From positions 434,001-498,000 of the forward strand of contig JAYWIR010000010.1 of the NCBI GenBank assembly GCA_036172245.1: 64,000 nucleotides of DNA. Direction: 5' to 3'. This DNA is from Raillietiella orientalis (taxonomy: Eukaryota). Below the pieces are notes generated by a model that did no database searches, was not told the DNA's origin, and was given only the letters and a program-made list of their open reading frames with translations. A program made the translations under genes and the position numbers. This document shows, in pieces, positions 5,201 through 59,630 of this stretch (positions are counted from its first letter, which is position 1; every line of letters starts with the position of its first letter).

Positions 5201-6385
5201 CGTCGCTCGCCAGAGTGGCGATGAAGGGGGGGCGCCAATCCTCGTCTTGGGTGCCGTCTGGTTCCCCTGCTGCGCGCGTGCGTGCACCCCGTCGAGTGGC
5301 TCTGCAGAGAGAGATGGCTGATTCCTCCCCCCTCCCCTCCTTCCTTCCGGAACGAGAGCGAAGGGCGCGTGCGAAAGACGTATCGAAGAAGTGGATCGGC
5401 GGTCTACTTCTGGGCGCTGCGCGGACGGCACCGGCAATCGGGCGAGGGAACCTCCGGGCAGCTCGAATGCAGGTCGGCACGCGGACGCGGGCCGCGCGCG
5501 CCTCTGCGAGCCGGTGCGAGGATGGACGGCGGCCGCTCGAGGGTGGCGAAGACTCTTGGAGCGCGTCGTCGACCCCGCGTCGGAGGGATGCCGCCTCGTG
5601 CACCTGCCGGGAGTCCGCAGGTTCCGCGGACGCCGACGATCTGGTTTCGGAGGTCAATATCCTCCCCCGCGGCGCGGCGCGGACGCGACGGCCGCAAGAG
5701 AAAATGCCGCAGCCTCAACGGGGCGGATCCGATCCGATGCGGGAAGGCCTCGCTCGGGCGTCGTCCGGCCAGGAGGCGCTCGGCCCGCTGCCGCCCCCGA
5801 GGCGGGCCGAGCCCCAGCGGAACGCCGGGAATCTCTTGTTGCTGCTGCGGGCGCCCGAAGGCTTCTCTCGAGACCCACATCCGCACCCTGGAGGACAGGT
5901 TCGAGAGAGGGCCAGCGCGACCCGCGCGGTGAAGTCGGATGCCAGGAACGGGGGAACCCAGTTTCGTGGGATCACCTTTGAGGGGGAGGGGGCGTCCCCC
6001 TTTCGCAGCCTCACGGACCCCGCCGCTTGGAGCGTTCCGGCCGCGCAGGCGGGGGATCCGAAGCGGGCACCATCTCAAACGTGGAAGCAGATGTGGCCAA
6101 CCGAAGCTGCAGATGGTCGCTCTGTCGAGCGCCAGTCGACGGTCGCAGACAGGAGAGCCGAGAGCGCTTTTTCCTTGGAAGGAAGGGGAAACCTTGGCGA
6201 CTCCAAGATGAGAGCTGCGTCCCTCTCCGAAGAGGCCGGAGGGGACCGCGCACTCAGCGGGGAGCGACGGGCGAGGAGGAACTCCTCCTCCTCATTTTCT
6301 TCCCTTTCTCCGCTTCCTCCTCCCCCTTTTTTCCTCCTACTCTTGCCTTCCTCTTCTTCCTCCTTCTCTTCGTTCCTTCCTCCTC

Positions 6386-6399
6386 CTCCGCCTCGCTAG
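6386..6399 (+). repeat. Left target-site duplication (CTCCGCCTCGCTAG) of the LINE copy at 6400-7321
   Basis: Identical 14-mer at 6386-6399 and 7322-7335, exactly flanking the LINE fragment. Confidence 0.85.
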
Positions 6400-7321
6400 G
6401 TGGCAAGTCTGCTGCCACTTGCCACCTCGAGGTGGCAAGTCTGATGCCGTATCACAGGCAGAGAGAAGATGAGCGGCTGGACCATGGGAGAGCTGACAGG
6501 GGCTGACATGGCTACGACCCCTAGTGTCCAGCCGCGAGGACTAAAAAGATGGGGCGAGCTGCTCGGCATCCGGTCGGATGACTTGAAGTGGCCCCCGGTT
6601 CTAATTGGATCCAGGATTCTTCCCCTGAAGTAGCAAGAGTCGGCGCTTCTGTGGCTGCATTGGGGTCTACCCTGCAACGCGCGCCGCTTCCACTGGACGC
6701 GGGGAAGAGTAAATGCTGCGTGTGACAGGTGTGGGGAGCGGGAGTCCCTCCCCCACCTCCTAGTTGACTGCCCTGCCCTCCGGATTGTTTGGGATCGTCT
6801 TGGAACGGCCCTTGGGATACCGGTTGGTGGCAGCCCCAGAGACGTTTACAGTCTTCTCTTCGTACGGGACGCCCCGAGTCCAGCCGCAGCCTTGGCAGCA
6901 CTTTGCTGCATCCGTGGTATTGTGGCGGCCTGGAGTGATGCCGAAGATGAAGATTGCAACGTGACGGACGTCATCCCGTATGCTGTTCGCTTCCTGCAGA
7001 GAGCTACCGGATGGCCTCAGCTGGGTAGAATGAAGGAGGACCTCGAGGGCATCCTGCAAAGGATGGGCCCTCCCCGTAGTGGAATGTGATCCCTTCCCGG
7101 CCCTCCAAACACTTTTTGATTTTTTTTTTCTCAATTTTATTTTTATTTTTGCTTTCTCCCCCAGCCCCTTCCACTGCCGAGGAGAGTCACACCGGGCTGC
7201 GTCCCGGTGTCCCGGCAGGTCCGGTGTTGCGTGGCCGTTAGTGGAGCCTTGTACCACGTTTTTTTGCATTGACCATGCAAGAGGTTTTTAATAAAGAGGT
7301 CCCGGAGTATCCGGGTGGCAT
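6400..7321 (+). mobile_element. 5'-truncated L1/Tx1-like LINE: ORF2 C-terminus (zf-RVT/CCHC knuckle) plus 3' UTR; best-preserved copy
   Basis: Frame 1 reads PRGLKRWGELLGIRSDDLKWPPVLIGSRILPLK*QESALLWLHWGLPCNARRFHWTRGRVNAACDRCGERESLPHLLVDCPALRIVWDRLG...LEGILQRMGPPRSGM* (stop 7089); CDRC-x7-H-x4-C is the LINE ORF2 C-terminal zinc knuckle; T-rich tract, structured UTR, AATAAA near 7290; 14-bp TSD. Confidence 0.9.
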
Positions 7322-7335
7322 CTCCGCCTCGCTAG
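7322..7335 (+). repeat. Right target-site duplication of the LINE copy at 6400-7321
   Basis: CTCCGCCTCGCTAG identical to 6386-6399. Confidence 0.85.
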
Positions 7336-9989
7336 CACTTCGTCAGGGAAAGCTCCGCACGAAGAGCGGGTTCGGCCACTATTTTTGGAATCCAGGCGAA
7401 AATCCCGATGCGTGTTCAGCGACTTTTCCTTCGCCTTGCAGCGCAGGCCGAGGAGGGACGGTGAAGCTGGGGACAGGAAGGACGAGGAAGAAGGGACGGG
7501 GAAGACCGCGGAACCAGAGCTCCCTCGATGCCACTCTTCGCGCTCAAGCGAACGCCTACACCGCCAGCGGCCACGCGGCAGTCTCGACCACGAGGTCTCC
7601 CGCGGCAACGAAGGCGCGGAAGTCGCGGGACAGAACAGCGACAGCGACAGGGCGGATGGGAAGAGACGCGCGCGAGCCTCGGGCGGCAGCAGCGTTCCGG
7701 ACAGGCGGGCGTGTCCGAGCGGACGACCGCGCTGTCCGTCGGGTGGGTCCCCTCCGCGAGCTCTGAGGGCTAAGGAGGAAAATCCGGGAAACGCCCGGCG
7801 CTCGCTCGCCTGGAAAGGAAGCGAAATCGCCCCCGGGGGTTTCACGGAGCACCCCAGCAACAGCACTCGCTGCTGGAGTGCTCCGTGACCGCACCGCGAG
7901 AGACGATGGTGCGCGCGCGCTGGTAGGCAGCGATCGAACCAATGGGGGAGGGGAGAGACGTCTTCATTCAGAACACCCGGTCTCACACGCGACAAGGAGA
8001 AAAAGAGGAGGAAGCGTTGCCATGGCTTCGCTTCCCAGGAGCTCTCTCCCTGTGCTCCCCGAAGGTCCTCCTCCTTTGGTTTACAGCAGTTCAGGGGGAA
8101 GAATGGAATTTTCTTCGGGCACGATCGGTCCGCTCCGCCTGAGCCCCTGCGCGCGCAGGGAACCGTCGAGCCGGCCCGCTGAGGCCGGCGGAGCTTTCGC
8201 GAGTGGCCGCGAGCCGCGCGCGCCGAGGTGCAGAGAGAGAGAAGGAGGGAGAGCGCGCGCAACAACAAACCCCCGGCCCCGTTGCTAGGTGACGCCCGCG
8301 CGAGATCGCGCGCGAGAGGGCGAACCAACAATGTTCCGGAAGCGGCAGCGACGATTATTAACGGGTTGCCGCTAATTTCCCTCCTCCTCCTCCTCCTTCT
8401 CCCCTCCTCCGCCCCGCGGAGCTCAAGGAACGGATGCGCGCGCGTGAAGTTCAACGACTTTTCCCTCCGACCGGATGGAGGAAGTTCCGCGAAGTTGATC
8501 GACCAGGAGACCCAGAAATTTCGGTGGCCTTTTGTTCGCGCGCAGAGTCCCCCCATCCCCTCCCGCGTTTGCGCGTGCGATGGAGGAGGCGCGCGCATCT
8601 TGGCCCCCAGGGGGGGGGGAGGAAGGACCGACTCTGCCGAAAATCGCACCACTCCCCCTCCCTCCCTTTCTCTGTCCCCCGCCGCCCCCGTTCGGCCTCC
8701 CCGGGCTTCCCTTGCCCCTTTCCCCCACTACAGGGCAGGCTCCGGTGCTCTTCCTCAAGGGCGAGGCTGTGCGACCCTCTCCGAATGGACGCAGGACCAA
8801 GGAAGCGGAAGGTGCCTTCGCGCTCTCCTCAGGCACTATCCAACGTCCACCTCGGAAGATTTTCCCCAGTCTCACGGGGCGAGCGGAGCCGTCAGCAGGC
8901 CAGGGGACCCCACGAGCCCGGAATTCTTTTTTTCCCGAAAAAAGCGAGTCGGCCGTGGTCCTCCGAAGGCTGCAAGCGTCGCCGCCTCCGACGACGCCCC
9001 CCGTCCAGCTGACCCACGACCGAGGGACGTCCAAGCGAGAAAGGACGCTCCACCCCGGGTGGTCTCCCGCAGGACTCACCAGCTTCCACTCGGGGCATCC
9101 GGAACGACCCCCCCTTTCTTCCCCCGGTCACGTCCAGCGAGCGTCGGACTCCAGGGTTCGCCAGCCCTGAGAGCTCTCGCCTGGGGATCCATTCGCAGTC
9201 CCCTCTCGCCTTCGAGGGTGGCTGTTCCTCTCTTCCCAGGTGCTTCCGGGAGCACAGGCCGAGAGGGGCGGAGTGCGGACGGAGGGCATCCTCCTCCTCC
9301 CTTGCTCTTTTCTTTCTCCTCCTCTTCCTCCTTCCTTTCCTCCTCTTCCCTTCGTCCCCCCCCCCACAAGAGAGAAACAGAGAGAGAGAAAGAAAGAGTT
9401 GTTTGCGGTTGACGTGATGCCAGCGGGACCGGCTGACGTCTTTCGGGCGGTTGGCCCGGATGCGTTGGCGGCGCCTTCCGCCGTGGTAAATCTCTTTCAC
9501 GTGCGGACACTCTTGGAATTGTTTACACGGGCACCACCGCCGACCACTGCTGCCATCGAGGAGCCTCCCATAAAGCTGCGCGCGACGACTGCATGAATGG
9601 GCGCCGATTATAAATAACGCACATTGCGCGCGACACCTGCTGGCCGGTGCGCGCAGCCTGGCCGCCGCCGGCGGTGGAGGGACCAGCGCGTGCCAGCTGC
9701 GGGCGCGCGCCGTGCAGCGTCGGCACGTGGCGGTCATCTCGGAGGCCGCCCGCGCGGGCTCCGCAAGGAGGGAGCGAGAAGAAGGGGAAGAGGATCCTTC
9801 TGGAAGCGGCCCGGGGACGGAAGGGGCGATGTCCGGGGAGAGGAAGGCGGACGGGTGCGGAGGACCGCCCTGCGAATTTTCCAGATGAGTCCTAGAGAGG
9901 CCGGCGGAGGAGGGAGTCGCACGGGATGGGGTCCCTGGACGAAGAGCAAGAGCCGTGGGCTTTACGAGCACCCCTTGGGAGTTCCTGGG

Positions 9990-10240
9990 AGCAGCGCAGC
10001 GCAGAAAACGCGGGTCTGACGCTCGAGGCTGCCCAAGCGAGGGCAAACCTGGGGTGTTGTTGGGGACGGGAAAACAGTTGTGGGAGAAAAAGGGCATTCG
10101 GTGCCTCCGCCACATGCTCGAGCGGCGTCACTACCAGCAACGACATGTGCAACAGTCCTTTGGCACTCCGGCTGCCCTCAGCAATCTGAACCAGGTCTGG
10201 CGCCTGGAGACCGGCACCAGGGAGGAGACCGCATCCCGGT
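9990..10240 (+). mobile_element. Decayed LINE ORF2 post-RT fragment
   Basis: QLWEKKGIRCLRHML resembles the W-x3-GI-x2-L motif of Tx1/L1-like ORF2; similar peptides at ~38060-38095 (-) and ~53790-53825 (+). Confidence 0.35.
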
Positions 10241-11544
10241 AAGGGCAAGCCCTCCCTCGTGCGGCAGACGACGGGAGGGGGGAGGAGAGGCCCCCTCGTC
10301 TCTCCTCGCGTCTCCAGGTTTCCGAGCTCTTCGCTTCGGAAAGAGGTGAGAGCGAGAAGTCGTCCGCAACGGCTCTTCCCCTCTCGATGGGCCCCTGGGA
10401 AGCGCGGCTGGCCTCTGGAGCTCCCCGTAGCCGGTCCGGACTCTCAGTCTGCTTGCGCGACTCCCGAAGTCTAAGGCACCGGCGGCCATCTTCGTGGGCG
10501 TAGGGGCCTTCTCCGCGCACCGCTTCGTCTCGGGGATGAACGGCCTCTCCTCTCCAGGAAGTCCTCGCCACCCTCCGTCAGGAGGCAGGTGCCCCGGGCC
10601 TGCCAGCAGCTGACCGTCTGCCCTCTCCGGCAACTTTTGCATTCCCTCCGCGTGCCACACGCTGGCGGGAGGCCACGTCGTGGAACGGTCGTCACAGCAG
10701 CAGCAGCCCGGTTCTCCCGAGAACGCCTCCGATCCGGAGGCCAAGTCAGTCATCCTGGTGGTGGTCCGGACCACCCCCAGGATGACCACTGCCGCCGACG
10801 CTGCTGCCACATATCCGGCAGGAGGTCGCCGGATCCCGTTGACGGCCTCACTCCTTCAGTGAACTCTCCGGACAAAAAACAAAAACAGGGAAGGGGGGGG
10901 GATGAGGGCGCGAGAAGAGCTCTCTAGCGGAGGAGAGGAGCATGCACGTCTTGTCAGTGACCCACCACGCTGGGTAAGGGGGTGAAAGCAAGGGGAGAAG
11001 GGGGCAGGCATGAGAACGAGACGGAGGAAATTTGGGGTCCGCCACCCTCCCCCGCGAAGGGGTCGCGGTCCTCGACGGTTCCTTTCCACGCGCACTGTGC
11101 GACCCATCCGACGCTTTAGGGAGCGCCCTGCGCGAACGCCGATGGGTTCGGGTGCGCGCCCTTCCCGTGAGCTGTGGAACACTGCCGAAGAAACGCGGCG
11201 GGAAGAAACGACGCGCACCTTCGAAACGCGGGTCTTCTGGAAACAGCAGGAGATGCCTCGCCCCTTCCGGCCATCGGCCCTAAATTGGGAAGGAGGGTGG
11301 GAAGAAGATGCTCCGGACCACTTCGTCTAGGGAAGAGGCGGGGAGGGAGGAGGTAGAAAAAAACAAGACTGCAGCTAGCATGGGGGACTCCGCCCTTCGC
11401 TTCCGAAACCAGCGCGTGCGATGCAGGCGTGAAATCAGCGCGGTCAGGTAGGGAGAGGGGGAGAGGTCGAAGGCAAAGTCGCGAGCGGCTGCGGAATTTT
11501 GACTCATCGCCTCCGGCCCGCTGGCGCAAGGACACGCATCACAT

Positions 11545-11815
11545 CCCGGATGCCTGACCAAAAAGGCGCTGCGCCCTGCGCTTCCTGAGGAGGCAGCCGG
11601 ATGGTCCCACCTGGGACGTATGCAGACTGAACTTGCCGGCATCCTGGAAAGGATGTAGAGGACGACCCCAGCGGAACGTGATCCCTTCCCCAGCCCCTCC
11701 CTGCTTTTGTAAATAGTGTTTTCTTTTTTTTGTTTCTATTTCTCCTTTCCCCCTCCGCTGCCGAGTCGAACTCGCCAGCCTGCGTGCTGGATACTCTGCA
11801 AGTTCAGAATTTTTA
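11545..11815 (+). mobile_element. Short LINE 3'-end fragment (end of ORF2 plus structured 3' UTR)
   Basis: CGCTTCCTGAGG...GGCATCCTGGAAAGGATG...GTGATCCCTTCCC homologous to 6988-7100; UTR element CTGCCGAGTCGAACTCGCCAGCCTGCGTGCTGG at 11758-11790. Confidence 0.8.
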
Positions 11816-12377
11816 CGAAAAAAGGCGCTTCGTCCTGGGCGGAGGAGCAGGCTCGCCGCGGCGGGCACGTGCAGATGGCGGCCGACCAGAGGTCCTCCAA
11901 AAGAGCTCTCTGCCCGGAGGGAAGTCGCGGCGGCGGCTTCCTTTGCGGGGGGGGAGCATCCGGGAGCTCGGGGCCTGTGAAGTAGAGACGAAGAAGGGGT
12001 CGCGGCTTCCTCCCTCGGACACGGGGTCCGCCCTCGCTTCCGGCTTCTGTGATCCACTTGATGCGGGTGCTCGTGCGTCCTTCTAAGGGGCATCAATTCA
12101 AAGACGATATCTGGTCAAGCTACTCCTGGCGCGGCGGTGCAGACGCAACATGTCCAGCTGCGGACAAGAACCCCGGAAGATGGTCAAGCTGACCAGGACC
12201 AACAACCGGATCTTCTGCCGGCCCAAGTGAATGGTAGTGCCTGGCTGCAGAAAACCCTCCTCACGTGGACCAAGAATAACGAAGCGAGCACGGAGATGCG
12301 GCAGTGATTGCTGCGCTCCTACAACAACCACTCGATGAAGGATGTCATCGTGCAACCCACCAGCTGGGCGTGGGCTC

Positions 12378-13268
12378 AAAGAACCTCCCCGGCCTCAGCA
12401 CTGCCCTTCCTCAGGGAACACCTGGGCAGTAACCAGCCGGCTAGATGGGAGATCCGATGGGAGATCGGTGGAAGAGCGAAGGAATGAGGTGGGTGGACCA
12501 CGGGTCAGCTCACGGATGCTGCGACAACAAGTGCCCCACCGAAAGGACTATTGCTCTAAGGCGAGCGGCTGCGAATCCTACAGGAAGGGTCTCCTCCTGA
12601 AGTGGTAGGGGGGCGACGTTGATGCTGCTGCACCGGGACCTCCCATGCAACGTCCTCCAATCTCACTGGACCCAGGAAACTGTGGACCCACACTGCTGCA
12701 GGTTCGGGGAGCGGGAATTTCAGCTCTCCCACTTGCTTGTAGACTGTGCTGCCCTGCGGCCCCTGCGCTTGCGTTACGCAACGGCCCTCGGTGCACCGAC
12801 GGACAATTCCAGGGACGCGATAAAGGGCCTCTTCGTGCGCGACGCCCTTTCGCCTGCCGCATCCCCAGCACCTCTCTGCTGCTGCCTACGTGGGGTTGTG
12901 GCGGCCTGGAGCTACGCGAGAGGAGGACGGCGAGAAAGGGACGCCGTCCGCTTCGTCCTGCGCTTCCTCCGAACGGCAGCAAGATGGCCCCGCCTGGGGA
13001 CATACTCGGAGGGCATCCTGGAAAGGGTGCAGAGGACGCCTTCCAGCTCCCTTCCCTAACCCTCCCATTTTTGTGTGCAAACAGTGTTTTGTTTTTATTT
13101 TTATTTTTGTTTGCCTCCCATCCCCCCCCCGCTGCCGAGGCGAACCTCACCGGCCTGCGTGCCGGTTCCGTGGCAGGTTCCGAGCATTTTCGGACATTGT
13201 AGGGCCGACGGTCCTAATATGTATGTTTATTTTTATCAATAAATGCCCCGGCGTGACCGGGTGATAAA
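12378..13268 (+). mobile_element. LINE 3'-end block, copy A of three near-identical ~890-bp copies (dead ORF2 C-terminus plus 3' UTR)
   Basis: LLHRDLPCNVLQSHWTQETVDPHCCRFGEREFQLSHLLVDC = degenerate zf-RVT; nearly identical to 34114-35003 and reverse complement of 36889-37778. Confidence 0.9.
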
Positions 13269-13689
13269 CAATTTAGGGATGAGTGGTTCTTCCTTTCGGA
13301 GCCCCGCAAAATTCTTCGCCTGCTCCCGAAGACTGGAACGCCTTCTTGATGTCCGATCTGTTGTTTCTCTCTCCCTCTCACTCAGAAAGGGTCGATCGTG
13401 GGACCTTTGGCGGCGCCAACGACGATTGGATTCAAATCGTCTTCCGTGGTCGCTCGGCAACCTCTTCGAGCTCCGCATTCCCTTCCAGAGAAGATGCCCG
13501 CGACGGCAATGCGCGCCGCGGCTGGCCTCAAATGCCGCAGCTGTGGAAGCAGCCAGATATCACCCGATGAAAACGTCAACGGCCGGGATTGGAAGTCGAC
13601 CCTCCGGAGTCCTTCAGAGTTCAAGGAGCCTTCGGGTAGTGAAAAGGGATGCGTCTCCTCCTTCTTGGTCGGCGAAACCCTTCGTCGCG

Positions 13690-13845
13690 TTCCATGGGGC
13701 TGGTCGATACCTCTCCAGATTGTAAGAAGCGCGCTGCTCCCTCCGGGGTTCTCTTCAGAGGAGGAAACTAGAAGCAGCCCCCTCCAGGGGACATCTCCTG
13801 AGAGGGAGGTGGGCTTCCTTTCAAGTTTCCCTCTCAAAAGGTAAG
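13690..13845 (-). repeat. Unidentified dispersed repeat family 2, copy b
   Basis: Reverse complement GAGAACCCCGGAGGGAGCAGCGCGCTTCTTACAATCTGGAGAGGT...CCATGG matches 38495-38601. Confidence 0.65.
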
Positions 13846-14396
13846 AAAGGTGAACGTGTTCTGCGTTACGGGGAATCCGCGTTATACGAACCCCCCTGGG
13901 TGAGCTGATGATTGGGTGCGCGCGCGTGGTTGCCATGCGGGGCTCGAGGAAGAACCTCGGCAAGAGACGTGGGGGAGGAGTGGGAGGCACCTTCTGGTCC
14001 TTCCTCCTTCGCCCCCACCCGCTCGTTTTGCTTCTTCTTCGGCTCTCCGCTCCGCGTTTCTTGCTGCCGGTGCGCATCCCGCTCGGATGGGTGCGCGGTG
14101 CCCTCTTCGGTGCGGCTTTGAGAAACTGCACGCCGTCCGCCGTCGGTGGAAACCACCGCCGGCCGCATCCAACCAGATGCTGCCGGATGGATTCAGGAGG
14201 TCGAAGCGCAGGTGGGGATCCGTTGGCGCCTAACGGGAGGCTCGCGCCCCCCGAGGGCCTTCCACCCTCGCCTCCAGTGGCTTCGAGCTACCCCGTGGAC
14301 GATCCGTCCACTTGCAAAACAAAACAAAAAAATCTATCAGAGATCCTCCCCTCTCCCTCTGCAGGGAAACACGGAAACGAAGAGCCAATGGATTCG

Positions 14397-15420
14397 CACC
14401 CGGGTGCTCCGGGGCGTTTCTTTCATGTAAAAAGAATAAATAAACAATAGTAGTCTCTGTGCTAGGACCGGTGGTCCAACCAACCACGACCATTTGAATG
14501 GGAACCTGCCGGGCTGCCGGCACGCAGACTGGTGGGTCCGCCTCGGCAGCAGAGGGGAGGGGGCAAACAAAAACACAAATAAATAAATAAATTGGAGAGG
14601 GAGTGTAGGAAGGTTCGCTTTCTGCTGGGGGCGGACCTCCGCATCCTTTCGAGGATGCTGGCAAGTCCACTCTGAGTACTTTCCAGGTGGGGCCATCTTG
14701 CTGCCATCCAAAATGAAGTGGACGGCGAAGTGGATGTGGCACCCCTGTCGCTCGGTCCTCCTCGCTCCAGGCAGCTACAATCTCGCGCAGGCAGTAGAGA
14801 GATGCTGACGAGGCTGCGTGGGAGGGGGACTCTTGAAGCGTTCCTGGAGTCGCCTCAGGGGGTTCCTAGGGTCGCGGCGAAGCGTTTCCAGAGGGGCCAG
14901 AGGGCAACCCAATCCGCAAGCAGGCGCGTAAGGGATTCACGTTCTCCGAACCTGTCACAGTTCGAGCCCACACACCCCCGTGTTGCCGGAAGGCGTTGCA
15001 CGGGAGACCACGGTGCAGCAACGTCAACGCGGACTCCTGCCGCTTCAAAGGGAGAGTGCGTCTGTCCAAGAGTACTGCGGTCCCTGTAGATCTTCCAGCT
15101 GAATCTCCAGCAGCTCGCTTTAGCGCAAAAGTCCTCGAGGTGGGGCTCTCTGGGTTGAAGCGTCCTTAAGCTGGCCCGTCGTCCAGTTCTCTTCTCCTGC
15201 CGGAGATATCCGCGGAGATCTTCGAGCCGGAAGGCTGCTGCCCATGTGTTCCCTCAGGCAGGGCAGTGCTGAGGCGAGGGAGGTTCTTCCTGCCCACGCG
15301 CTTCTTCCAGGATCTTGGAGGAACTCTCAGAGTGTAGTTGTGGCGCGAAGCGCCAACGGAGGGAGGATGGGAAGGGTACGGCTCGCAGTGGCCTTCGTCC
15401 GAACACCCGTCCCACCAGTC
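14397..15420 (-). mobile_element. Diverged LINE 3'-end copy D
   Basis: Minus strand: EEPPSPQHCPA*GNTWA...LPLKRQESALTLLHRGLPCN...CDRFGERESLTRLLADW; structured UTR 14506-14549; terminal CCCGG-AGCAC-CCGGG hairpin near 14400-14415. Confidence 0.85.
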
Positions 15421-25469: not shown

Positions 25470-25675
25470 ATGGCTTCCTTGTCCGCAACATTGAAAACGC
25501 TGGCAAATAAATAAGGGAATAAAGTTTGCACGCGCTTCGTGGTCTGCAGATAAGGAAAACCTTGGCAAGTTAGTAAATACATAATTACATAAATAAATAA
25601 CGTTTGCACGAGCTTCATAGTCCGCAGGTAATAAAAACCCTGGAAAATAAATAAATAAATAAGCGGCACGAGTTG
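25470..25675. repeat. Degenerate tandem repeat, ~3 units of 60-80 bp with TAAA runs
   Basis: GTCYGCA...AAAAC..TGG.AA..(TAAA)n..GCACG recurs three times. Confidence 0.7.
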
Positions 25676-28924: not shown

Positions 28925-29290
28925 GACGCTGGAGAGAATGGAGCAAAGCAGCAAAGAGCTGCTGGGGATGCGGCGCACGAAGAGGCGTTTCATCGCGTTC
29001 CTGGAATTGTTCGTCGGTACATCGAGGGCTGTCGCGTAACGCAACCACAGGGCCGGAGGACAATACAGTCTACAGGCAGGTGCAGGAGCTGGGATTCCCG
29101 CACCCCAAACCTGCAGCAGTCTGCGTCCACAGTCCCCTGGGTCCAGTGAGATCAGAGGAGGTTGCACGGGAGGTCCGGTGCAGCAGCATCAACGTCGACC
29201 CCTGACAATTCAGGGGGAGGGGTCGGTTGTTTTTGAGCTCTGGGGACCACTAGAGGTCTTCCTGTAGGATTTCCAGCTCAGAGCGCTTTG
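28925..29290 (-). mobile_element. LINE zf-RVT fragment, close relative of copies A/B/C, lacking the 3' UTR
   Basis: Minus strand CGACGTTGATGCTGCTGCACCGGACCTCCC...LRYATALDVPTNNSRNAMKRLFVR, clearly homologous to 12575-12880. Confidence 0.85.
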
Positions 29291-30450: not shown

Positions 30451-32858
30451 CCACGCCCTTCCGCCACTCTTCGGTCAGATTCCAGAAAGGTTCGGGAGCT
30501 TTGCTTTCTTCTTCTTCCTCTTCTTTTTTTCATTCTTTTTCCTACTCTTCCTCTTCTTCTTCCGTCGCGTTTCGAGAGCCGATGAACCGCTACCAGGTGT
30601 TGAAAATTCACAGATTGGGGTCGCAAGGAAACGTACGTTTCGAAAGGTGGGAATGGCCGGCGGATGGGCAGTGTGCAGCGACACACACTCACACCCTAAC
30701 CGAGCTACCGACCCAACTCTGCATCCCGGGAAGAAGCGAATGAGCATAGAGAAATGAGCATGAGTAGAGCGTGAGTCCTCGAGTGGGAAGCGCGAAACCC
30801 GAGGTACCGGCAGTCGTGTCAGGGCAGCGCAGGTGCGTTTGTGGTCGCGCCGACCGAGCCATTCCGCCACGAGTCTCCGGGAATCGCCCGCGCATTCCCC
30901 CATAACGTCTTTCCGGAACCACAGTTTGAAGGAGCCATGGGAATGACGAAGCGGTTCGAATGGGCGGAAAGAGGGTGTTCGAGAAAAAGGGGAGCCGAGC
31001 GGGCATCTGCGCTGTAGGCAAGCCGCGAGCGCACGGAGATCGAATCGGGGAGGTCCTGAAGGTCGAAAATTCGATCATCAAGGAGAGCACCCTCGTTCCC
31101 TCTGGTCGAAACACTTGGACAGTGAAGATTCGGCGAAGAGGTCTCGAAGAGGAACGCACTTCCTCTTCAAAGGCTACCGCTTTCCCGAGTTCCCAGCTTC
31201 TTCCCGGGCCCGCTCGAGTCGTCGCAGAGGCGGGCTGTTGCTCTTGGAATGCAGATCATTCCGAGTGGTTGCTTTCGGATGGCACATCTCCGCAGATGCT
31301 TGCAGTTGCCCTGGGAATGAACGCAGAGCTCTCGATCCCGAAAGAGTAAAGTAGCGAGTAAACGCGGCAGTCATTGAATTCCCGTCCTTTCGATGAGGAC
31401 GTACCCTCGTCTTGTACACTGGAGCCGTATGTACACTCCAAGTACTTGGTCTCCGTAATGAGGAACAATGCAAACGATTGGCTGACGAACCGGATATGCG
31501 CGTGTTTTGTATACATGAATAGAGAATAATAGAAGCTTGCAGTTTGTTGTTTTCTACGACAAGGTCCTCGGGTGAAACTCAGGTGACGTCAGAGGATGGA
31601 GGAAACCCACTTCATGGCACATGCCGGAGGCACATCTCATAGATGAGACGGTGGTGTCTCCGCGATGGCGGCGGGTGCAAATCCACTATCCAAGTAAATG
31701 AAATGCGCGGGGGAAAATGCAACATGGCGGCAACATGGACAGGGAAAAAACGGGAGCGCGGGAAAGCATCGATGAGATGATGCCTTTCCCTCGAGGCGGA
31801 TGCAGCTGGTGCTTGGCAGCTCGCGAAGCAGAGATGCCACCAGCACTCCCAGATGTGTTCGCCTTCCGTGTTCCTCGGAGGGGAGGTCGGCGTGCACGTC
31901 GCGTTCGCCGGCAAAGAGACGTCGTCGCGCTCCGCGGGAGCTTTCGATCCCGTTCCACTCTTTCTCCGGCTGCCCGCTCGTGGACCGGGCGTGTGGCAGA
32001 GTCTCTGAAATGAGAGAAACCCACGAGTACTGCGAAGTCAACCGCCTCGAGGCGCACCGCTGCTGCTCTCAAGTTTCAGTTTCCCGGAGATCGAGACTCC
32101 GCGCGCGATCAGTGCTGCCAGTCTTTCTGCTTCTCGGGCCGGGAGAACTCCCGTGGAAGGGTTTGGCAGTCGCGCTCTCCTCGAGGAACGGGCTATCTTT
32201 TTTTCTTTCGGGATAAATTTTCCGATTCAAAGAGATACGGATGCTGAGCGCAGGAGTGCGACTCGGGATGAATCTCGTTCTTGGAGAATCTTCCAGAAGT
32301 TCTTTTTTTTCTCTAACGTTCCTCGTGTCTCTTGTACTGTGAAGGAAGAAACTACGGCGGAACTAAAACACGTGAGGGTGTGGTCCGAAGCGGGCGAGTC
32401 ATGAACGCAAAGGTTGCTTGCAACTCTAAGAAGAGAATCCGCATCTTTGTGCTGGTGAAGCATGAAACGGCGACGATTACGTCATTCCAGAACTCCTGCC
32501 GATGCGGAGTCATTTGCTGTGTTTCCTCCCTCGTGTTTCTTGTTCGCCGTTTTACAAACGGACATCGAAAACATTCTTGGATGCAAATGAAAGTTGCATC
32601 TCACTGATCACACAGTTTTGAGCTTGCTTTCCACGAGCCACTTCTCGGCTGAGATCGGTGGTGCAGTGAAAATCAATTAATGATGCCTTAGGCGTGACGA
32701 ACTTCGTCAGCACTGGAAATAGAAATAAGGGCTTAAGGGGTCTTAAGGGGTGGGCAGTGTCTGAACAGTTGAGAACAGCGCTCAAATTTTCCACCCATTG
32801 CAAGGAGGCCTTTATCATTAAACAAAACCATAATGAAAGTCCATTAGAAGTGTTCAAG

Positions 32859-33520
32859 CGTGGTGAAACACTCGGTTTCACCACGTGCTCGGGACTTGCC
32901 ACGACCGGTACGAACACCCGCGAGATCCGTTTCCACAGCGACGGAGAAGGGAAAACCGGCAAAAACAAGGAAAAAGAAAAAGAGGAAACAAACAAAATAG
33001 AGAAAAATGGGAAGAAAACTTTCACTGGGGAAGGGGAGGGCACCAGGGATGGCATCACACTTCTCTGGCAGACGTCCTCGCCATCCTGTCGAGGATGCTG
33101 GCAAAAGTTCTGTCCGTATCTCGCCCAGGTGGGGGCCATCTCGAGGCGGTCCTCAGGAAGATTCACACCCAGTGGATGGCGTCCCTTCGATTCTGGCCTT
33201 CCACGCCGCCACGATCCCGCGAAGACAGCAGGGCACTGCAAGGGTCGCGGCCGGTGGCAGTGTGGCGCGCACGGAGAGGAGTTTGCAGATGTCCCTGGGG
33301 TCGCCAGCCGGGATTCCTAGGGTCATCGAGAGACTGTTCCAAAGGGACCGGGGGGCGGCAGGGTCCAGCAGAAGGTGCGGGAGGGCCTCCTTCTCGCCCC
33401 ACCTTCCACAGTTGGCATCCACACTCCCCCGTGTCCAATGATGAAGGCGCTCCTTGAACGGAATTCCCCAATGCAACACCAGAACGCCAACTCCTGCCAC
33501 TCGAGGGGGACGGTGAACAG
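32859..33520 (-). mobile_element. Diverged LINE 3'-end copy E
   Basis: VLHWGIPFKERLHHWTRGSVDANCGRWGEKEALPHLLLDP...CCLRGIVAAW; T-rich tract and UTR; perfect 11-bp hairpin CGTGGTGAAAC/GTTTCACCACG at 32859-32885. Confidence 0.85.
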
Positions 33521-34113
33521 CGCTCAAGTGCGGCAGGCGGTAGTTTGTCACGGGCTCTCTTTGTCACCCATCGCTATGCCTCCTCCCCTGAGTTTGTCAC
33601 ATCCTTCCTGGGGGTCATGCACTCCCGGCAGGTCCGCGAACGCGCCTCCTCCTCTGATGAGGAGCATCTCGTCCAATGGTGCAGTTTTTCTTGAACTTCG
33701 CTGACCGAGAGTGTCCCTGTGAGGGTTCACTGTGAGAGCCTCGTGCCGGCGTTAGCTGGAGCGCCATGAAAGGAAGATTTGGACCGGAAATAAAAAGGGA
33801 TATGGACGAGGTAAACGAAACCAATGGAGAAAACAGGAGGGGAAGGGACCATAGCGTTCGTCGCTTTGAGAAAGCGGCGTGTTGGAGAGGAAGCAGCCAA
33901 TCGTCACTCGGGAAACTCGAAAAAAAAAAGAAAGAAACAAAATGGGTCCTCTTGCTGATGGTGACATTCATGCCCACCAAAGGTTCTCTCCGGACAAACA
34001 GTCTTTCCGATCCCCGACTGTTGTATCTTCTTCGAGAACAAGAGCATCCTCCGGTGCTTGCAGGACTGATCAGGATCGTCGGCGCCCGAACTGCCAGCGC
34101 TGTGGACGGGCGG

Positions 34114-35003
34114 AAAGAACCTCCCCAGCCTCAGCACTGCCCTTCCTCAGGGAACACCTGGGCAGTAACCAGCCGGCTAGATGGGAGATCCGATGGGAGA
34201 TCGGTGGAAGAGCGAAGGAATGAGGTGGGTGGACCACGGGTCAGCTCACGGATGCTGCGACAACAAGTGCCCCACCGAAAGGACTATTGCTCTAAGGCGA
34301 GCGGCTGCGAATCCTACAGGAAGGGTCTCCTCCTGAAGTGGTAGGGGGGCGACGTTGATGCTGCTGCACCGGGACCTCCCATGCAACGTCCTCCAATCTC
34401 ACTGGACCCAGGAAACTGTGGACCCACACTGCTGCAGGTTCGGGGAGCGGGAATTTCAGCTCTCCCACTTGCTTGTAGACTGTGCTGCCCTGCGGCCCCT
34501 GCGCTTGCGTTACGCAACGGCCCTCGGTGCACCGACGGACAATTCCAGGGACGCGATAAAGGGCCTCTTCGTGCGCGACGCCCTTTCGCCTGCCGCATCC
34601 CCAGCACCTCTCTGCTGCTGCCTACGTGGGGTTGTGGCGGCCTGGAGCTACGCGAGAGGAGGACGGCGAGAAAGGGACGCCGTCCGCTTCGTCCTGCGCT
34701 TCCTCCGAACGGCAGCAAGATGGCCCCGCCTGGGGACATACTCGGAGGGCATCCTGGAAAGGGTGCAGAGGACGCCTTCCAGCTCCCTTCCCTAACCCTC
34801 CCATTTTTTTGTGCAAACAGTGTTTTGTTTTTATTTTTATTTTTGTTTGCCTCCCATCCCCCCCCGCTGCCGAGGCGAACCTCACCGGCCTGCGTGCCGG
34901 TTCCGTGGCAGGTTCCGAGCATTTTCGGACATTGTAGGGCCGACGGTCCTAATATGTATGTTTATTTTTATTAATAAACGTCCCAGAGTGACCGCGTGAT
35001 AAA
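34114..35003 (+). mobile_element. LINE 3'-end block, copy B (near-identical to A and C)
   Basis: Same AAAGAACCTCCCC start and same 146-aa degenerate zf-RVT ORF (34355-34795) as copy A. Confidence 0.9.
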
Positions 35004-35034
35004 TCAGAGACGTATGGAGGCGCCTCTTCGTAGG

Positions 35035-35455
35035 AGACGACTACCGCCAGCCGCAGCCCCATCAGCTCTCTCTACGCGGGGTCTTGGCTGCCCGGGGCCC
35101 CGTTGAAAGAGGTGACAACGACAGGGGCTCGTCTTGTGGTCCGCTTCCTGAGGATGGCGATATCTGGGGGACATGCAGTGCAAACTTGCCGGCATCCTTG
35201 TAAGGATGCAGAGAGCGCCTCTAGGCAGACGGCCCCTCCATCCCTCCCCCCCCTTCACTCCATTAAAATGTGTTTCATATTCATTTATTTATTTTTTAAT
35301 TTTGCTTTACTGTTGGTCCCCTCCCCTCTGCTGTCGAGGTGACCCTCGCCAGCCTGTGTGCCGGCGACCCGGCAGGTTCGTTGGAGGATGGACGTGGCGG
35401 GAGCGAGGGTTCCACCACCACATTGGAAAGAAATGTCCCGGGGCAACAGGGTAGG
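35035..35455 (+). mobile_element. Diverged LINE 3'-end copy F, directly tandem behind copy B
   Basis: VRFLRMA...CTTGCCGGCATCCTTGTAAGGATG; UTR element CTGTCGAGGTGACCCTCGCCAGCCTGTGTGCCGGCGACCCGGCAG at 35331-35375. Confidence 0.8.
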
Positions 35456-36888
35456 AAAAGAGGAACGCCGCGGCGTTGTCTCCCGAGCTCCCGTTCCGGA
35501 AGTCCAGAGCAGTTCGATGTCTCCTGGAGGGGAACGCGGACACGACGCTCAAGGAACGAACGACATCAGCAAGGAGTAGCGTGGTGGAACGAAGGGGAGT
35601 ACTGGGCAGCTCCGCGAAGGTGGTTCGAGCCAAGGTGCCGCCTCTCCCGAAGCGGACGGAGGCGCCGACGGGTTGCGCGCGTCCTACGGATGTGACGTTT
35701 CCGGGTTTGTTGCTCCGGATGGAGGAAAATTCCTACAGGACGAAGGACGCGCAGAGGAAAATAGGGAGGGCGACAGACAGAAATGGTGGTGGAACAGCAG
35801 AACAGGCGGGAGTTCCAAAGCCGACAAAGCCGGGGCAAAGCGGTTGACAAGGAACGGAATTTACCCCTAAGAAAAAAAAAAAAACGCACGCACGCACACG
35901 CGAAACGAAGAAGAAAATGCGTTTGCAAGAACTGCTTCTTCCTCTGCTTCTTGGGCAAGAGTCGGAGCTCCTTGCTCCCGCACCCGGGCAAGCCAGCAGA
36001 TCGGCTGGAAGACGACCCGGGACGAAATTTCAGCGCTCTCCGGGTCCCGAAACGCCGCCCTCCCGCCGGCCAGCCAGGGACTCGGACCCTCGTCGCACCG
36101 GGATGCGAACGCCACCAGACGGGCGAACGCGCTTCCGTTTCCGTTAGCGGAATCCCGCGGCGAACGGGTGGACGGACAGGGCCGGCTTGCGGCAGGCGGG
36201 GGACCGCGGTCAATACGCGCGTCTGCGCTGCTGATTTCTGATTCTGCTCTCCGACAACGCGGCGTCGAAAGGTTGTCCGATGAGAAGACCTTGTTTGGCG
36301 TGCGCAGGCGCGCCTCGCCCTGCTTTCGCCCCTTCCCCCTTTTCAGCGCGTCCTTTCTGCCATGACGTCGGCGAACGCTGGAAACCATTCCTTCCGCTCC
36401 TGAGGGATTTCCAGGATTGGGGGAGACGATGCAGGATGCGACTGATGCGAGGAGGCAGGAAGACGACGGACGACCGGCGTCAAATGGATGGACGCACGAG
36501 AGGTGATTCCCTCTGGGCGGGAACACCTGCAGCAAGAATTTTTGCTAGTGTCCTGCAACGTGCTCCCCTCTCCCTTCTCCCAGAGGGCGCACACGTGGTG
36601 TGCGCTGCGAAAAGTTGGCGCGAACACTTGGGCTCAGCCACTATGCGAACACCGCCAACGCGAACTGCCATCCGCTCGAAAATTCAGGTTCAGCGCTCCG
36701 GGCGGTTGCGGCTCCCAGGACGCGTAGTTCGCGTAGGGCGAAGAAAGGGCGCACGAAACGAACCCGCAGACCCGAAACTCGTCTTGGTCCAAAGGCACAC
36801 AGACGAAGGAAAGTCCGATGTGGTCTCGCCACGGCGGTCTCGCGGCCGGAGGTCGAGTCTTGCAGGAGGCGCAACTTCGCAACCCTGG

Positions 36889-37778
36889 TTTCTCACCCGG
36901 TCACGCCGGGGCATTTATTGATAAAAATAAACATACATATTAGGACCGTCGGCCCTACAATGTCCGAAAATGCTCGGAACCTGCCACGGAACCGGCACGC
37001 AGGCCGGTGAGGTTCGCCTCGGCAGCGGGGGGGGATGGGAGGCAAACAAAAATAAAAATAAAAACAAAACACTGTTTGCACAAAAAAATGGGAGGGTTAG
37101 GGAAGGGAGCTGGAAGGCGTCCTCTGCACCCTTTCCAGGATGCCCTCCGAGTATGTCCCCAGGCGGGGCCATCTTGCTGCCGTTCGGAGGAAGCGCAGGA
37201 CGAAGCGGACGGCGTCCCTTTCTCGCCGTCCTCCTCTCGCGTAGCTCCAGGCCGCCACAACCCCACGTAGGCAGCAGCAGAGAGGTGCTGGGGATGCGGC
37301 AGGCGAAAGGGCGTCGCGCACGAAGAGGCCCTTTATCGCGTCCCTGGAATTGTCCGTCGGTGCACCGAGGGCCGTTGCGTAACGCAAGCGCAGGGGCCGC
37401 AGGGCAGCACAGTCTACAAGCAAGTGGGAGAGCTGAAATTCCCGCTCCCCGAACCTGCAGCAGTGTGGGTCCACAGTTTCCTGAGTCCAGTGAGATTGGA
37501 GGACGTTGCATGGGAGGTCCCGGTGCAGCAGCATCAACGTCGCCCCCCTACCACTTCAGGAGGACACCCTTCCTGTAGGATTCGCAGCCGCTCGCCTTAG
37601 AGCAATAGTCCTTTCGGTGGGGCACTTGTTGTCGCAGCATCCGTGAGCTGACCCGTGGTCCACCCACCTCATTCCTTCGCTCTTCCACCGATCTCCCATC
37701 GGATCTCCCATCTGGCCGGCTGGTTACTGCCCAGGTGTTCCCTGAGGAAGGGCAGTGCTGAGGCTGGGGAGGTTCTTT
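36889..37778 (-). mobile_element. LINE 3'-end block, copy C (near-identical to A and B, inverted relative to B)
   Basis: Reverse complement matches 12378-13268 with only a few substitutions; identical 146-aa ORF at 37097-37537. Confidence 0.9.
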
Positions 37779-38150
37779 ACATCTGTGGGGTTGCCTTCGA
37801 AATAACCCAGGGTCGTGGGGCAGTGTTCCCACAGGGGCAGTCCACGGGCAGGTGTGGGAGGGGCTCCTGTTCCTCCCCGCACCTGCTGCAGTTCGGGCTC
37901 GCACAGCCCCTGGTTCCAGAGTGGCGTTCCTCTTCTCCTGAATTCCTTCTGGAAGGATCCCACGTCTGGCTGCGACGCACGCAAACTGCTGCTCGCGCAG
38001 CCGTTCTGCCCGAACCGGATGAGCAGGCGGCGCGCGGGATGGGCGGGTCTCCTCCATCCCCGGATGCCGCGCGTCTTCCCATCGCTGATAAATGCGGGTC
38101 ACAGAGGAGGGACCGCAAGGCGCACAGCACGCACGTTCGGGGTGTTCCCC
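37779..38150 (-). mobile_element. Decayed LINE ORF2 post-RT sequence upstream of copy C
   Basis: IYQRWEDA-GIRG and TPLWNQG peptides resemble Tx1/L1 post-RT motifs; same strand as and contiguous with copy C. Confidence 0.4.
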
Positions 38151-38730: not shown

Positions 38731-40054
38731 ACACGCCGCTTTGTCCATAGCTGTGGCGAATGCGTGGTTTCGGTCCGGTTCAGGTAGGCGGGTTGTTACA
38801 AAGGTGGGGGTTGGCGGGGCAAGGTCGTCGTGTCGTGTTCGTTGTAATCGACCGATACCAGACGGGGGTGACCCGGGACGCGCAGCGGGCAGCCCGAGCT
38901 TTGTCGGGCCGGGCGCCTCGCGATCCGCGCCCTGCAGACTCGACGGGGAGGAGGAAGCCGCGACGCACTTCCGGGATCCGACAGCGTCCGAGGATGGGAG
39001 GTTGCCAGCGGCTCGCGAATCGCCCGCAAAATCCTTCGTTCTTTTTCTTTATCTTTTTTATTTTTTTTTCTGCGCTGCGGTGACCTTGTCGAACTCGTCG
39101 TGGGTGCGCGGTGTGGGCGGAAACTCGCTGCTTAGGAGCGCCAGTCCACGCGAGGGAGCAGCAGCACCAACATCCCACCTGCATTTCTGCTCGGAATGCG
39201 ACTAGGCAACGGTGCGAACCGCCGCGACGCCCATCTCCGTTTCGTCGGGAACGAAAGCCACCCAGTCACCAAGTGAACCCCCGGCCCCTTCCTTCCCTTC
39301 CAGGGTCTTAGCCGGCAAACTCAGCAGATCCTCGGGTTTTGCTGCTGCCTCTGCGCTTCGTCCCATGTCGCCGGGTTTCCCCGCTCCTACGGCTCTTCTT
39401 CATCGGATGCTCCTCAGTTCCGGGAGTGCCTCGCGGCATCCTCTTTCTTGCCGGCTCGGCGAGACGGATCAGGCGCTCTCCGAAGGAACGTTTCCTGGGC
39501 GCTTCCCGTGACTTCCTGGCTTGAGGAGTTCCTCGCACCCTCGGGTGGCGTGGGCGGTGTTCATAGAGCTTCTTGCCCCCCCACCCCCATCCCCGAAAAG
39601 GCGGACGGTTCTTCGGCACTTGGCGAGCCGCATTCCCGGCGGGCTCTCCCCTTGTGTTTTAGATCGTATTGCTGACCGCGAAGCCCCACTTAATAAGGAT
39701 CGAGAAGCTCACCCGGTTCGAGTCCTGAAAGCCCTTTCGCGTTCGAATTTTTGAGTACCGAATTTTAGGCACTTGGAAACTCGAAATTCACCAACAGAAA
39801 AAGCCTTGAGGGCGTGAAATCGTCGTCAGCGAAGAGCACGCGCAGATGGCAGCAACAGTGGGCGCACGTGGGCTCTTCCGAGGAGCCAGAGCGGGAAATG
39901 GGTCCCGCATGGTTCCTGCCGGCGCTCTGGCAGAGTTCCGGTTTCCTCTGTCCCATTCCCGTTCCGCCGTCTGTGCGGCTGCAGCGTCTTCGCGAAGAAC
40001 GGCAGGGAGGAGAGGAACCTCCCGCCGTGAGCTTTCGCAGGTTTCGGCAGCGCG

Positions 40055-40392
40055 GCGCTTGGCACGGATGGCGCATAGGTTTGTGCCTTCGAAGTGGCCG
40101 ACCAAATAGGTCTCGCCAGCTTCTTGCAGAGCAAACACCGCCGAGCTTTGGAAACTTCTTTATCCGTTTTGAAATCTCGGGCTGTCCCGCGTACCAAACG
40201 TTGGAAAGGCAGCTCGGTGCTCTTCTGGTAACGGCGGATCTCTCACAAGGCAACAGTGACTGGCCGGTAGCTGTGAGACTTCTTCACGCCTCCTGTGGCT
40301 GGAGCACTCTTGCGAGCCGCCTTCGTTGCCGACTGCTTCCTCGGAGCCATGCAAGCAGTTCTCTTACGAGCGGTTTGCTCTGTACGAGCCAT
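40055..40392 (-). pseudogene. H3: Histone H3 pseudogene (intronless, premature stop, 15-nt deletion, frameshift, 3'-truncated)
   Basis: Minus strand from ATG at 40392: [109 protein letters not shown]; stop at 40243-40245. Confidence 0.96.
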
Positions 40393-42558
40393 ACTTTATC
40401 AAGAACACACTTCTTCAACCACCAGGAACAACCACACCTTCAGCACACGTTCCTTTCGATGCTCTCTCAAAGAGACTAGCAGATGGGAGCGAGGGGGAAG
40501 GGGCAAGGGCCTTGCACCAAACGCAGGGAGAGAGCCTGCTTCGTGGAGGAAGGTTTGGCGTGCGCCCCTCGCTCGGGTGCTCTTTGGCGAGCCGCATCCC
40601 TGGTTGCTGGCCGGTTTCCCTTGCAGACTGCTCAGGTCGTTCGACGTGCGCCCTGTGAACTCAGGGTCACCGAGTGAGGCGAGGTCAGATCACCTCGCTG
40701 GCGCTCTACGCAGCTTTGGAGCTCGCTGCACGTCCGTCGCTCGTTGCCGCGCCCTGCTGCGTGAGAGTCCGCCGATTCGGGAGCCGAGACACTGCCGCGA
40801 TCCGGGAACGGGACCGGCGTGCCAGCGGAGCGAAGGCGGGAGCAAGAGGCACCCCTGCGACCCTCGTCCATCGCACCCATCATCCCTGGCACGCGGCGGC
40901 CAAACGCCCCCGCGCGTGCCAAACGGAACTCGAGCACACGCTGGCAGTGGGGCAACGGTGCTTTCGTTCGTCGCCTTGCCGCTGGACGGGCTGCCTCTCT
41001 GCCGGGATTTTTCCCGTCGCTCCTCAGAGGACGCCCTGAAGCCACCAAGGTCCGCTCGACTCTCCGTTTGCATTGGTGCGAGGTGACCCCCACCACCAGG
41101 GGCGGGTGGCGGATGGGGTGCGCGCCGGGCTGGCACCCCCTCCGCAGTTCCGCTCAAGCGGCGCTTCCCCTACTGTGGAGATGCCGGACACCGGGTTCCC
41201 TCCCTGCTCCCGGCAGGAAAGGGGTGGCTCGAAAGGAGGGTTTGAAACCCCTTTTTCCTTTTGCCGTCGCGGCTCCTACACCGAAGATGGCTGCTGCTCC
41301 TCCGAACAAAGAAGCAAAGATCGTCTCTTTTTGCAGGGGTCCGCGCTTCGCCGCGGGGAGCAGGTTGGGCCTCGGCTTTCCGGGTGCCCTCTATCCCTTT
41401 CTCGTGCTCCGCCTCGAATCGAGAGGCCGGGAGCCAGAAGCGGGGATCCTGCGCCGCACCTGGGGGTGGGGCAAGTGGAATCCACCGTGGCACCACCATC
41501 TCGGAAGCTCTGACTTTCGTAAATTTGCAAGATGGACGGCACAGGCGCTCCATACGAAGGAAGGGGAGGAGGAGGAAGGGAAGAGGGGAAGGAGGAAGAA
41601 GGAAAGAAGGGAGGAGGAGGAGGAGAGGTGCGGAGTAGCTACTCCTTCACCTTCACTTTACCCGATCTTCAAGTGAAGGAGATCCTCGTTTCTACGATGC
41701 TGTCTCCATAAGGAGTGGGGCACAGAGAATTCAATAGGCCAAACGGAAACCGGACCGCGCGCTCCAGGCCCCTCCACGTGGGGCACCTAATGAACTCGAA
41801 AGTCACCTAAAAGCATAGGAAACCCGATCCTACCGCCAGCGCAAACAGGGACCACTTAGACGAAGGTGGCTCAATCAGACAGGAACACGCTGTTAAGAGG
41901 AAAACAGAATGATTGATCCGGGCGCCATAATTGATCTTCGCGGAGTGGAGAGCAGCTCTCTGGGGGAAAGCGACGCTGGTGGGGCTGAAAGGCGAGGCGT
42001 GTAAGACGCCTCGCCTTTATTGCTCGGCCCTCGACACGATGATGGACGCGGATCCGAACGAGGGGACCCTCCGTCTGGGCCTCGTCGCGGTCTTCTTGGA
42101 GCAGCAGATTGCAACAAAGGGAAGCTGGTAAGGAGAGGAGGAAGCTGATCCTGCGGCTAAAGTTCCATGTGGGCTAGAGTGGGCGATCCATCGAATCACG
42201 CCCATCGGCTGAGTTCATCCCGGGCTGGGGATTCTGCCCCGAAACCCTCGCCGAGGCTCAGAAAACCTCGTCTCGAACGCCGCGCGCCTTTTCCGCCCTA
42301 CCCCGAAGCTCGTGCATGAGTGACCACTTCGGGAATCGTCTCTTGGCTTCCTTTCACCTTCGTGATGCCTCCAGACGGAAGCACACGCACTGCTGCTTTA
42401 AGAAGGCGCATAGAGGAAAGACAGGGGCAGCGACTAATATCAGCACGCGCTTATCCTCTTGATGCCAGCGGGGAGGCCTTGGAGCAGAGGTGCTCTGCAC
42501 CAGCTGGAGACTGCACCCAAACCACGTGTGGAAATCACGTGTGGCACAGGTCAGCCCC

Positions 42559-59439: not shown

Positions 59440-59630
59440 CCTTGAAGAGGAGGAGGAAGAGGAGCTGGAAGGGAAGAGGAAAAGGAGGGAGGGAAGGGGA
59501 AGAGAAGGGAAGAAGAAGACGAAGAAGGGAGAAGAGGAGGAGGAGGAGGAGGAATGGGGCAGGAGGAGAAGACAAAGAAGAGGAGTAAGGGAGAAAGGAG
59601 GAGGAAGAGAAGGGAAGAGGACGAGGAGTA
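59440..59630. repeat. Low-complexity polypurine (GAG/GAA) tract
   Basis: About 190 nt almost entirely G/A. Confidence 0.85.

Follow-up and report, generated by a model that had tools for sequence, protein, structure and literature searches.

A conserved multi-hairpin tail of about 140 nt forms the 3′ end of a LINE-derived retroposon family in Raillietiella orientalis, as seen in ten copies within one 64,000-nt stretch of genomic DNA (GenBank assembly GCA_036172245.1, contig JAYWIR010000010.1, positions 434,001 to 498,000 of the forward strand), which we refer to as the window. An initial annotation of this DNA had proposed such an element, and its presence, on the sense strand and without poly(A), is confirmed here. 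The family consists of discrete, non-coding units of about 0.9 kb, made up of a remnant of the ORF2 tail, a pyrimidine tract and the structured tail, and at least one subfamily, represented by copies A, B and C, has spread recently. On the evidence of eight distinct sequences, the tail is probably of the stringent type and would allow mobilisation of the unit in trans by a partner LINE. Features of this kind are already known, and the finding leaves the present view of retrotransposition unaltered.

Discrete units with a decayed coding remnant

By blastn with positions 13041-13290 as the query, ten loci in the 64-kb window, the query itself included, matched at E ≤ 0.004: A (13041, +), B (37115, −), C (34777, +), D (11682, +), E (14583, −), F (43686, −), G (7135, +), H (35293, +), I (52608, −) and J (32981, −). 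Copies A, B and C are near-identical in this comparison, and D to J share 68-81% identity with the tail of copy A over shorter stretches. We also built a covariance model from the 58-nt core of the tail; an unfiltered run of this model over the window, on either strand, recovered exactly the same ten loci at 54-83 bits, with the runner-up at 13.8 bits; the number of related copies, given as about ten in the initial annotation, is thus supported by both searches. The window itself, at 61% G+C and with an observed/expected CpG ratio of 0.97, looks like repeat-rich eukaryotic DNA. The copies and two further partial copies extend as follows, with the basis of each assignment in brackets.

12362-13269 (+), copy A, whole unit of about 0.9 kb (start from the nhmmer 5′ profile; 3′ end where the A/B/C alignment stops)
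36888-37779 (−), copy B, whole unit (alignment to A, 5′ profile)
34107-35004 (+), copy C, whole unit with a mutated terminal hairpin (alignment to A, 5′ profile)
11567-11815 (+), copy D, partial, with the core present and the downstream hairpins absent (alignment, core model)
14391-15305 (−), copy E, whole unit with the same 5′ boundary as A (alignment, 5′ profile)
43501-44085 (−), copy F, shorter at the 5′ side, with a perfect 11-bp HPb (alignment, stem search)
6384-7322 (+), copy G, whole unit with the best-kept coding remnant, at 6634-7086 (5′ profile, zf-RVT-like frame)
35242-35460 (+), copy H, short, just past the end of copy C (blastn, core model)
52424-53101 (−), copy I, shorter at the 5′ side, with a decayed tail (alignment, core model, 5′ profile)
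32787-33563 (−), copy J, its 5′ extent mapped as far as 33563, with a perfect 11-bp HPb (core model, stem search)
28947-29277 (−), tail-less partial copy, coding remnant only (alignment, 5′ profile)
50538-50726 (−), partial copy, only the 5′ part of the unit (5′ profile)

Some of the copies lie in convergent pairs: A (+) faces E (−) with about 1.1 kb between them (12362-15305), and C (+), followed by H (+), faces B (−) with about 1.9 kb between (34107-37779).

In the nhmmer 5′ profile, six elements start within about 25 nt of one model position, namely A at 12362, E at 15305, C at 34107, B at 37779, G at 6384 and the tail-less fragment at 50726, and A and E share this boundary despite being just ~63% identical. 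The common starts therefore define discrete units of about 0.9 kb and not randomly truncated LINEs, so that the LINE setting envisaged in the initial annotation is replaced by one of non-autonomous units. Over about 895 bp, copies A, B and C share 98.8-99.2% identity, whereas the DNA to either side of them is unrelated; they contain no open reading frame and no RT. Since they are non-coding and lack an RT, any recent movement would have involved copying in trans. We saw no target-site duplications around A, B, C and E. Site-specific insertion was considered and rejected, as the nine 3′ flanks have nothing in common.

The body of the unit had been annotated as LINE ORF2, a description that survives only as a sub-threshold zf-RVT match and a CCHC-type motif in copy G. 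There, the frame at 6634-7086 matches zf-RVT with 18 bits (E 0.0048), short of the cut-off of 27.5, and holds a motif of the form CX2CX7HX4C (CDRCGERESLPHLLVDC); the other copies carry frameshifted forms of the same remnant of about 150-200 aa. In copy A, the degenerate ORF2 C-terminal remnant, recognised from translations and from its alignment to the zf-RVT-like frame of copy G, spans 12601-13059 (+), retains a decayed CCHC motif and ends at TAA. Across the whole window, 208 stop-free frames of at least 150 aa gave no Pfam match at E ≤ 0.001, and neither RVT_1 nor Exo_endo_phos was found at E ≤ 0.05 in 121 frames of 60-149 aa located up to 3.5 kb upstream of the copies on the same strand, or in two longer frames rescanned in the same way. 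The 331 frames scanned contained no RT or endonuclease domain, though heavily broken RT pieces could escape such a scan, and no autonomous, RT-encoding copy with this tail was found within the window.

Searched against 1.84 billion protein representatives, a profile of the remnant gave three matches, with no RT-bearing relative among them: one is a fragment of 87 aa that belongs to this family, and the other two are zf-RVT proteins with weak scores. A search aimed at longer relatives of the protein remnant in copy G likewise found none. In a protein atlas, 21 of the 30 nearest clusters lie within a zf-RVT set. A putative origin of the unit from a LINE is indicated by the CX2CX7HX4C motif, the weak zf-RVT match and the atlas lead.

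Several other features of the window were observed alongside the family. A histone H3 pseudogene lies at about 40050-40392 (−), with an in-frame stop and frameshifts, and Pfam Histone matches at E 3.8e-06 on 39791-40159. An inverted duplicate unrelated to the family joins 42551-42940 and 44977-45367 (391 bp, 98% identity), and an A/T-rich tandem repeat with a 78-bp period and 1.9 copies occupies 25518-25662. At 57281-60637 (−), a stop-free frame of 1119 codons has no Pfam match, GAAGAG-type repeats and a strong purine skew; it probably reflects base composition rather than a gene.

Architecture of the tail

The MFE fold of copy A comprises P1, P2 and P3, two more hairpins and a terminal hairpin, and is identical to the fold drawn for it in the initial annotation. 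Its elements, preceded by the pyrimidine tract, are listed below.

13066-13131 (+), pyrimidine tract, U-rich then C-rich, before the core and present in ten of ten copies (mean pairwise identity 0.43-0.44)
13132-13176 (+), core, with P1 at 13132-13136/13172-13176, P2 at 13137-13140/13145-13148 and P3 at 13149-13154/13161-13166 (MFE fold of copy A, pair counts)
13155-13160 (+), conserved hexaloop CUGCGU of P3, part of the core
13180-13193 (+), HPa, a small variable hairpin (MFE fold of copy A)
13194-13222 (+), HPb, the downstream hairpin, with the strongest covariation among the helices (pairing and shuffle tests)
13238-13243 (+), AAUAAA hexamer, 26 nt before the 3′ end (inspection of tails)
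13247-13269 (+), terminal hairpin CCCGG-N5-CCGGG (13247-13261) with an 8-nt tail, UGAUAAAC; the end of the element, without poly(A) (alignment, pattern match)

Conservation differs between these modules. Mean pairwise identity is highest in the core (0.67) and stands at 0.58 in the coding remnant and 0.55 in the terminal hairpin; the other parts of the UTR range from 0.31 to 0.44, and the flank is at 0.21. The place of HPa holds a hairpin in some other copies, the sequence of which is not conserved.

At the 3′ end, the sequence CCCGG-N5-CCGGGTG is exact in four tails (A, B, E and G) and has two mismatches in C and H. The terminal hairpin is 82% paired, and its covariation is at the level of shuffles (255/500), so that its support comes from sequence conservation. 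The tail after this hairpin measures 7-9 nt. Copies A, B and C end at ...GGGUGAKAAAY without an A run, after which their flanks are unrelated, and neither an A run nor a terminal repeat was found at the tail ends. Copy C differs from A at seven positions in its last 35 nt (34970-35004, +), with both strands of the terminal hairpin hit, and at about 1% over the other ~860 nt; error-prone initiation of the cDNA, conversion from another subfamily or chance are possible sources of this divergence. At its 5′ edge, copy G has a perfect 10-bp hairpin (6399-6408/6417-6426, +) following a CT-rich tract, and a 13-nt motif of this edge is repeated at 6431-6443 and resembles the 3′-terminal GGGUGGCAAC of F, G and I.

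The element had not been recognised as a named RNA family, and Rfam agrees: at gathering score, the whole window gave no match, and at E ≤ 5, the stretch 7000-14700, which holds G, D, A and E, gave 13 matches, none overlapping these copies. The repeat family may be catalogued already in Repbase or Dfam, our comparison having covered Rfam. An ENE-type triple helix was considered and dropped: on inspection, the stems are not separated by a U-rich internal loop, an A-rich tract is missing on the 3′ side, and Rfam gave no match. Outside the window, the core pattern matched 72 loci (42 metagenome, 2 viral-contig and 28 prokaryote), which score at most 19.8 bits against 54-83 for the copies described here and have neither the pyrimidine tract nor the tail; we attribute these matches to chance in GC-rich DNA.

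Base pairing and covariation of the helices

The core alignment contains ten copies with eight distinct sequences, all from one window and mutually related. Under the three-way-junction model, 82.2% of the core pair cells are paired, compared with 31-44% when the partners are slid, and the covariation score of 0.221, against a shuffled mean of 0.138, was reached in 2 of 500 shuffles, a control that eight related sequences can exceed through relatedness alone. The covariation signal of the core is carried by P3, where three of the six pairs show changes on both sides and the loop-closing pair is C-G, U-A, G-C or U-G among copies. P1 is near-invariant, wobble pairs aside, and never covaries; P2 is just 70% paired. 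Thus, P1 and P3 are solid, and P2 is weak and unreliable.

RNAalifold returned P1 and P3 without P2, with P1 instead extending into the strand that would form P2. This extended-P1 alternative is 83.2% paired and has a covariation score of 0.262, reached in none of 500 shuffles, which places it slightly above the junction model; one of its pairs is C-G, U-A or A-U depending on the copy. Under both models, 82-83% of the core is paired, compared with 25-53% when slid. The folding energies differ from copy to copy. In A, B and C the junction is favoured (−22.1 kcal/mol versus −15.6 kcal/mol for extended P1), extended P1 is favoured in G and E, and the two folds have equal energy in H. In D, F, I and J, which are decayed, both folds lie far from the minimum, and the consensus costs far more than the MFE. 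Because extended P1 scores slightly better, and given these per-copy energies, the three-way junction can be taken as secure in the young copies A, B and C but not in the others.

For HPb, pairing was assessed on six trimmed segments (A, F, J, H, G and I), with B and C identical to A in this part and D lacking it; copy E was omitted because its register is ambiguous. Both-sided changes occur at 6 of the 11 pairs, in nine cells, a count reached in 0 of 500 shuffles, and 77.3% of the cells are paired, compared with 34-44% when slid, although the choice of segment ends by the analyst and the omission of copy E bias these figures toward structure. Perfect 11-bp stems are formed at 43552-43580 in copy F and at 32859-32885 in copy J, and in the same register the two differ at four pairs with no mismatch. 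Longest-stem shuffles reach 11 bp in 15 of 1000 cases for F and 38 of 1000 for J, so each stem taken alone is just modestly unusual.

These results bear on the initial annotation in several ways. All the variant stems it quoted are present where it placed them, among them those at 7189-7210, 11775-11790, 11762 and 35335 and the two 11-bp stems of HPb, and the hexamer it read in A, B, C and the copy near 6400, which is G, occurs in all four as AATAAA. Its case for compensatory changes holds in P3 and HPb; P1 and the terminal hairpin, on the other hand, show none beyond controls, and the case for P2 is weak. Likewise, the three-way junction stands as the MFE fold of A but becomes, for the family, one of two near-equally supported folds. 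Its L1/Tx1-like placement of the family is tentative.

A probable stringent-type tail and its alternatives

We favour the reading of a stringent-type tail because the tail stays conserved and paired across diverged sublineages, matching stringent LINEs and precedents in the L1 clade. In this mechanism, the sense RNA would fold into a conserved core (P1, P3 and the hexaloop CUGCGU), a hairpin of variable sequence and the terminal hairpin, and the RT of an autonomous partner LINE, encoded outside the window, would bind the folded tail. Target-primed reverse transcription would then start a few nucleotides past the terminal hairpin, copies would hence end precisely and without poly(A), and short units could be copied in trans. 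Among the parts of the tail, the core would be the likely protein-binding determinant, HPb may serve as a structural spacer in which pairing alone matters, and the terminal hairpin with its 7-9-nt tail may mark the start site.

In stringent LINEs, the ORF2 protein recognises the stem and loop of the cognate 3′ stem-loop and begins cDNA synthesis at a defined end, and UnaL2 of eel and ZfL2-1 and ZfL2-2 of zebrafish, members of the L2 clade, have a conserved stem-loop near the 3′ end and no poly(A) dependence (PMC4176376). The tail in the window is similar in having a stem with a conserved loop (P3 and CUGCGU) and precise ends without an A run. Tails of the UnaL2/ZfL2 type consist of a single short stem-loop followed by short tandem repeats, whereas the present tail is multi-domain, measures about 140 nt and has no terminal repeat.

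In the L1 clade, LINE1-1_ZM with ZmSINE2/3 of monocots, and a green-alga pair, are described as LINEs and SINEs that share a conserved 3′ end ‘with a solid RNA structure’, within a line of LINEs that is usually poly(A)-dependent (PMC3472496). The non-autonomous units of the window, likened to these pairs by description, also carry a structured tail together with a zf-RVT-type remnant; unlike those SINEs, they retain about 600 nt of the ORF2 remnant and lack a head of the tRNA or 5S type. A multi-helix fold is also found in the R2 3′ UTR, which its own RT binds and on which cDNA starts at a precise end without poly(A). R2 inserts at one site of the 28S rDNA, unlike the copies in the window, the flanks of which are all different, and there is no match to an R2 RNA family, since no Rfam family matches at all.

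Part of the tail may act in forming the RNA 3′ end. Seven of nine tails have AAUAAA, or a hexamer that differs from it by one base, at 24-27 nt from their inferred end, and F and I have none; the constancy of this distance is partly built in because the 3′ ends of E to J were set by analogy with A. From this position the hexamer may set the RNA 3′ end, also under stringent recognition. There is a small chance that this is the main role of the tail, with the hexamer and hairpin directing cleavage, termination or protection of the RNA and the RT needing no fold. Such a role is compatible with the stringent-type reading, and the conserved sequence and the pairing of the terminal hairpin fit it. 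However, it leaves unexplained the covariation of HPb and the top conservation of the core, about 90 nt upstream, as well as the two tails without a hexamer, and the genomic copies lack the A run that a poly(A)-dependent RT would copy.

Compared with dinucleotide shuffles, the tails fold with a mean z of −1.82, whereas upstream coding controls give +0.21 and the 3′ flanks −0.71; individual tails range from −0.14 to −4.63, with copy I at about 0. These values argue against a tail without function, in which shared ancestry of dead copies would account for the similarity and the hairpins would be GC-rich palindromes picked by eye. That reading, which we consider rather unlikely, agrees with the small number of distinct, related sequences, with the lack of covariation in P1 and the terminal hairpin, with a consensus fold that is not the MFE in most old copies, and with the frequency of 7-8-bp stems in shuffles. 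It does not fit the higher conservation of the core relative to the coding remnant beside it, the excess of both-sided changes in P3 and HPb over shuffled and slid controls, or the perfect stems of F and J, which occupy the same place with four pairs changed.

Pairing support exists for both core folds, in different sublineages. It is conceivable, at long odds, that the core switches between the P2 hairpin and extended P1, gating RT loading or the start of cDNA, and that the unit is a distinct type of non-autonomous retroposon that keeps an ORF2 remnant and a multi-domain tail.

Energy alone cannot fix the strand of the element, because antisense tails have a z of −1.78, level with the sense value, and the A/C mismatches of P3 in copies E, H and F become wobble pairs if read antisense. 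Even so, a role at the DNA level or in antisense, be it as a palindrome bound by protein, as an antisense promoter or in recombination, is very improbable: the module always lies in one orientation, past the stop of the remnant and at the end of the element, the sense fold is lower in energy than the antisense fold in six of seven copies, and G-U pairs of the sense strand occur in P1, P3 and HPb. The compact branched fold of the core, with its conserved loop and junction, might suggest a catalytic RNA, for example a self-cleaving ribozyme, or else a mimic of a tRNA-like primer. This reading is scarcely credible given that no Rfam family, ribozymes included, matches the core at gathering thresholds or E ≤ 5, that ARAGORN finds no tRNA-like gene in the window, and that, to our knowledge, none of the known motifs of catalytic cores occurs in the junctions.

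The choice of the RNAs that a LINE RT copies, and hence of the parasites that ride along, lies with structured 3′ tails. If the stringent-type reading is true, this family, with its multi-domain tail, its naturally occurring compensatory variants and its young non-autonomous subfamily, would be a convenient natural system for mapping how an RT recognises its RNA, and the tail could seed the annotation of this repeat family.
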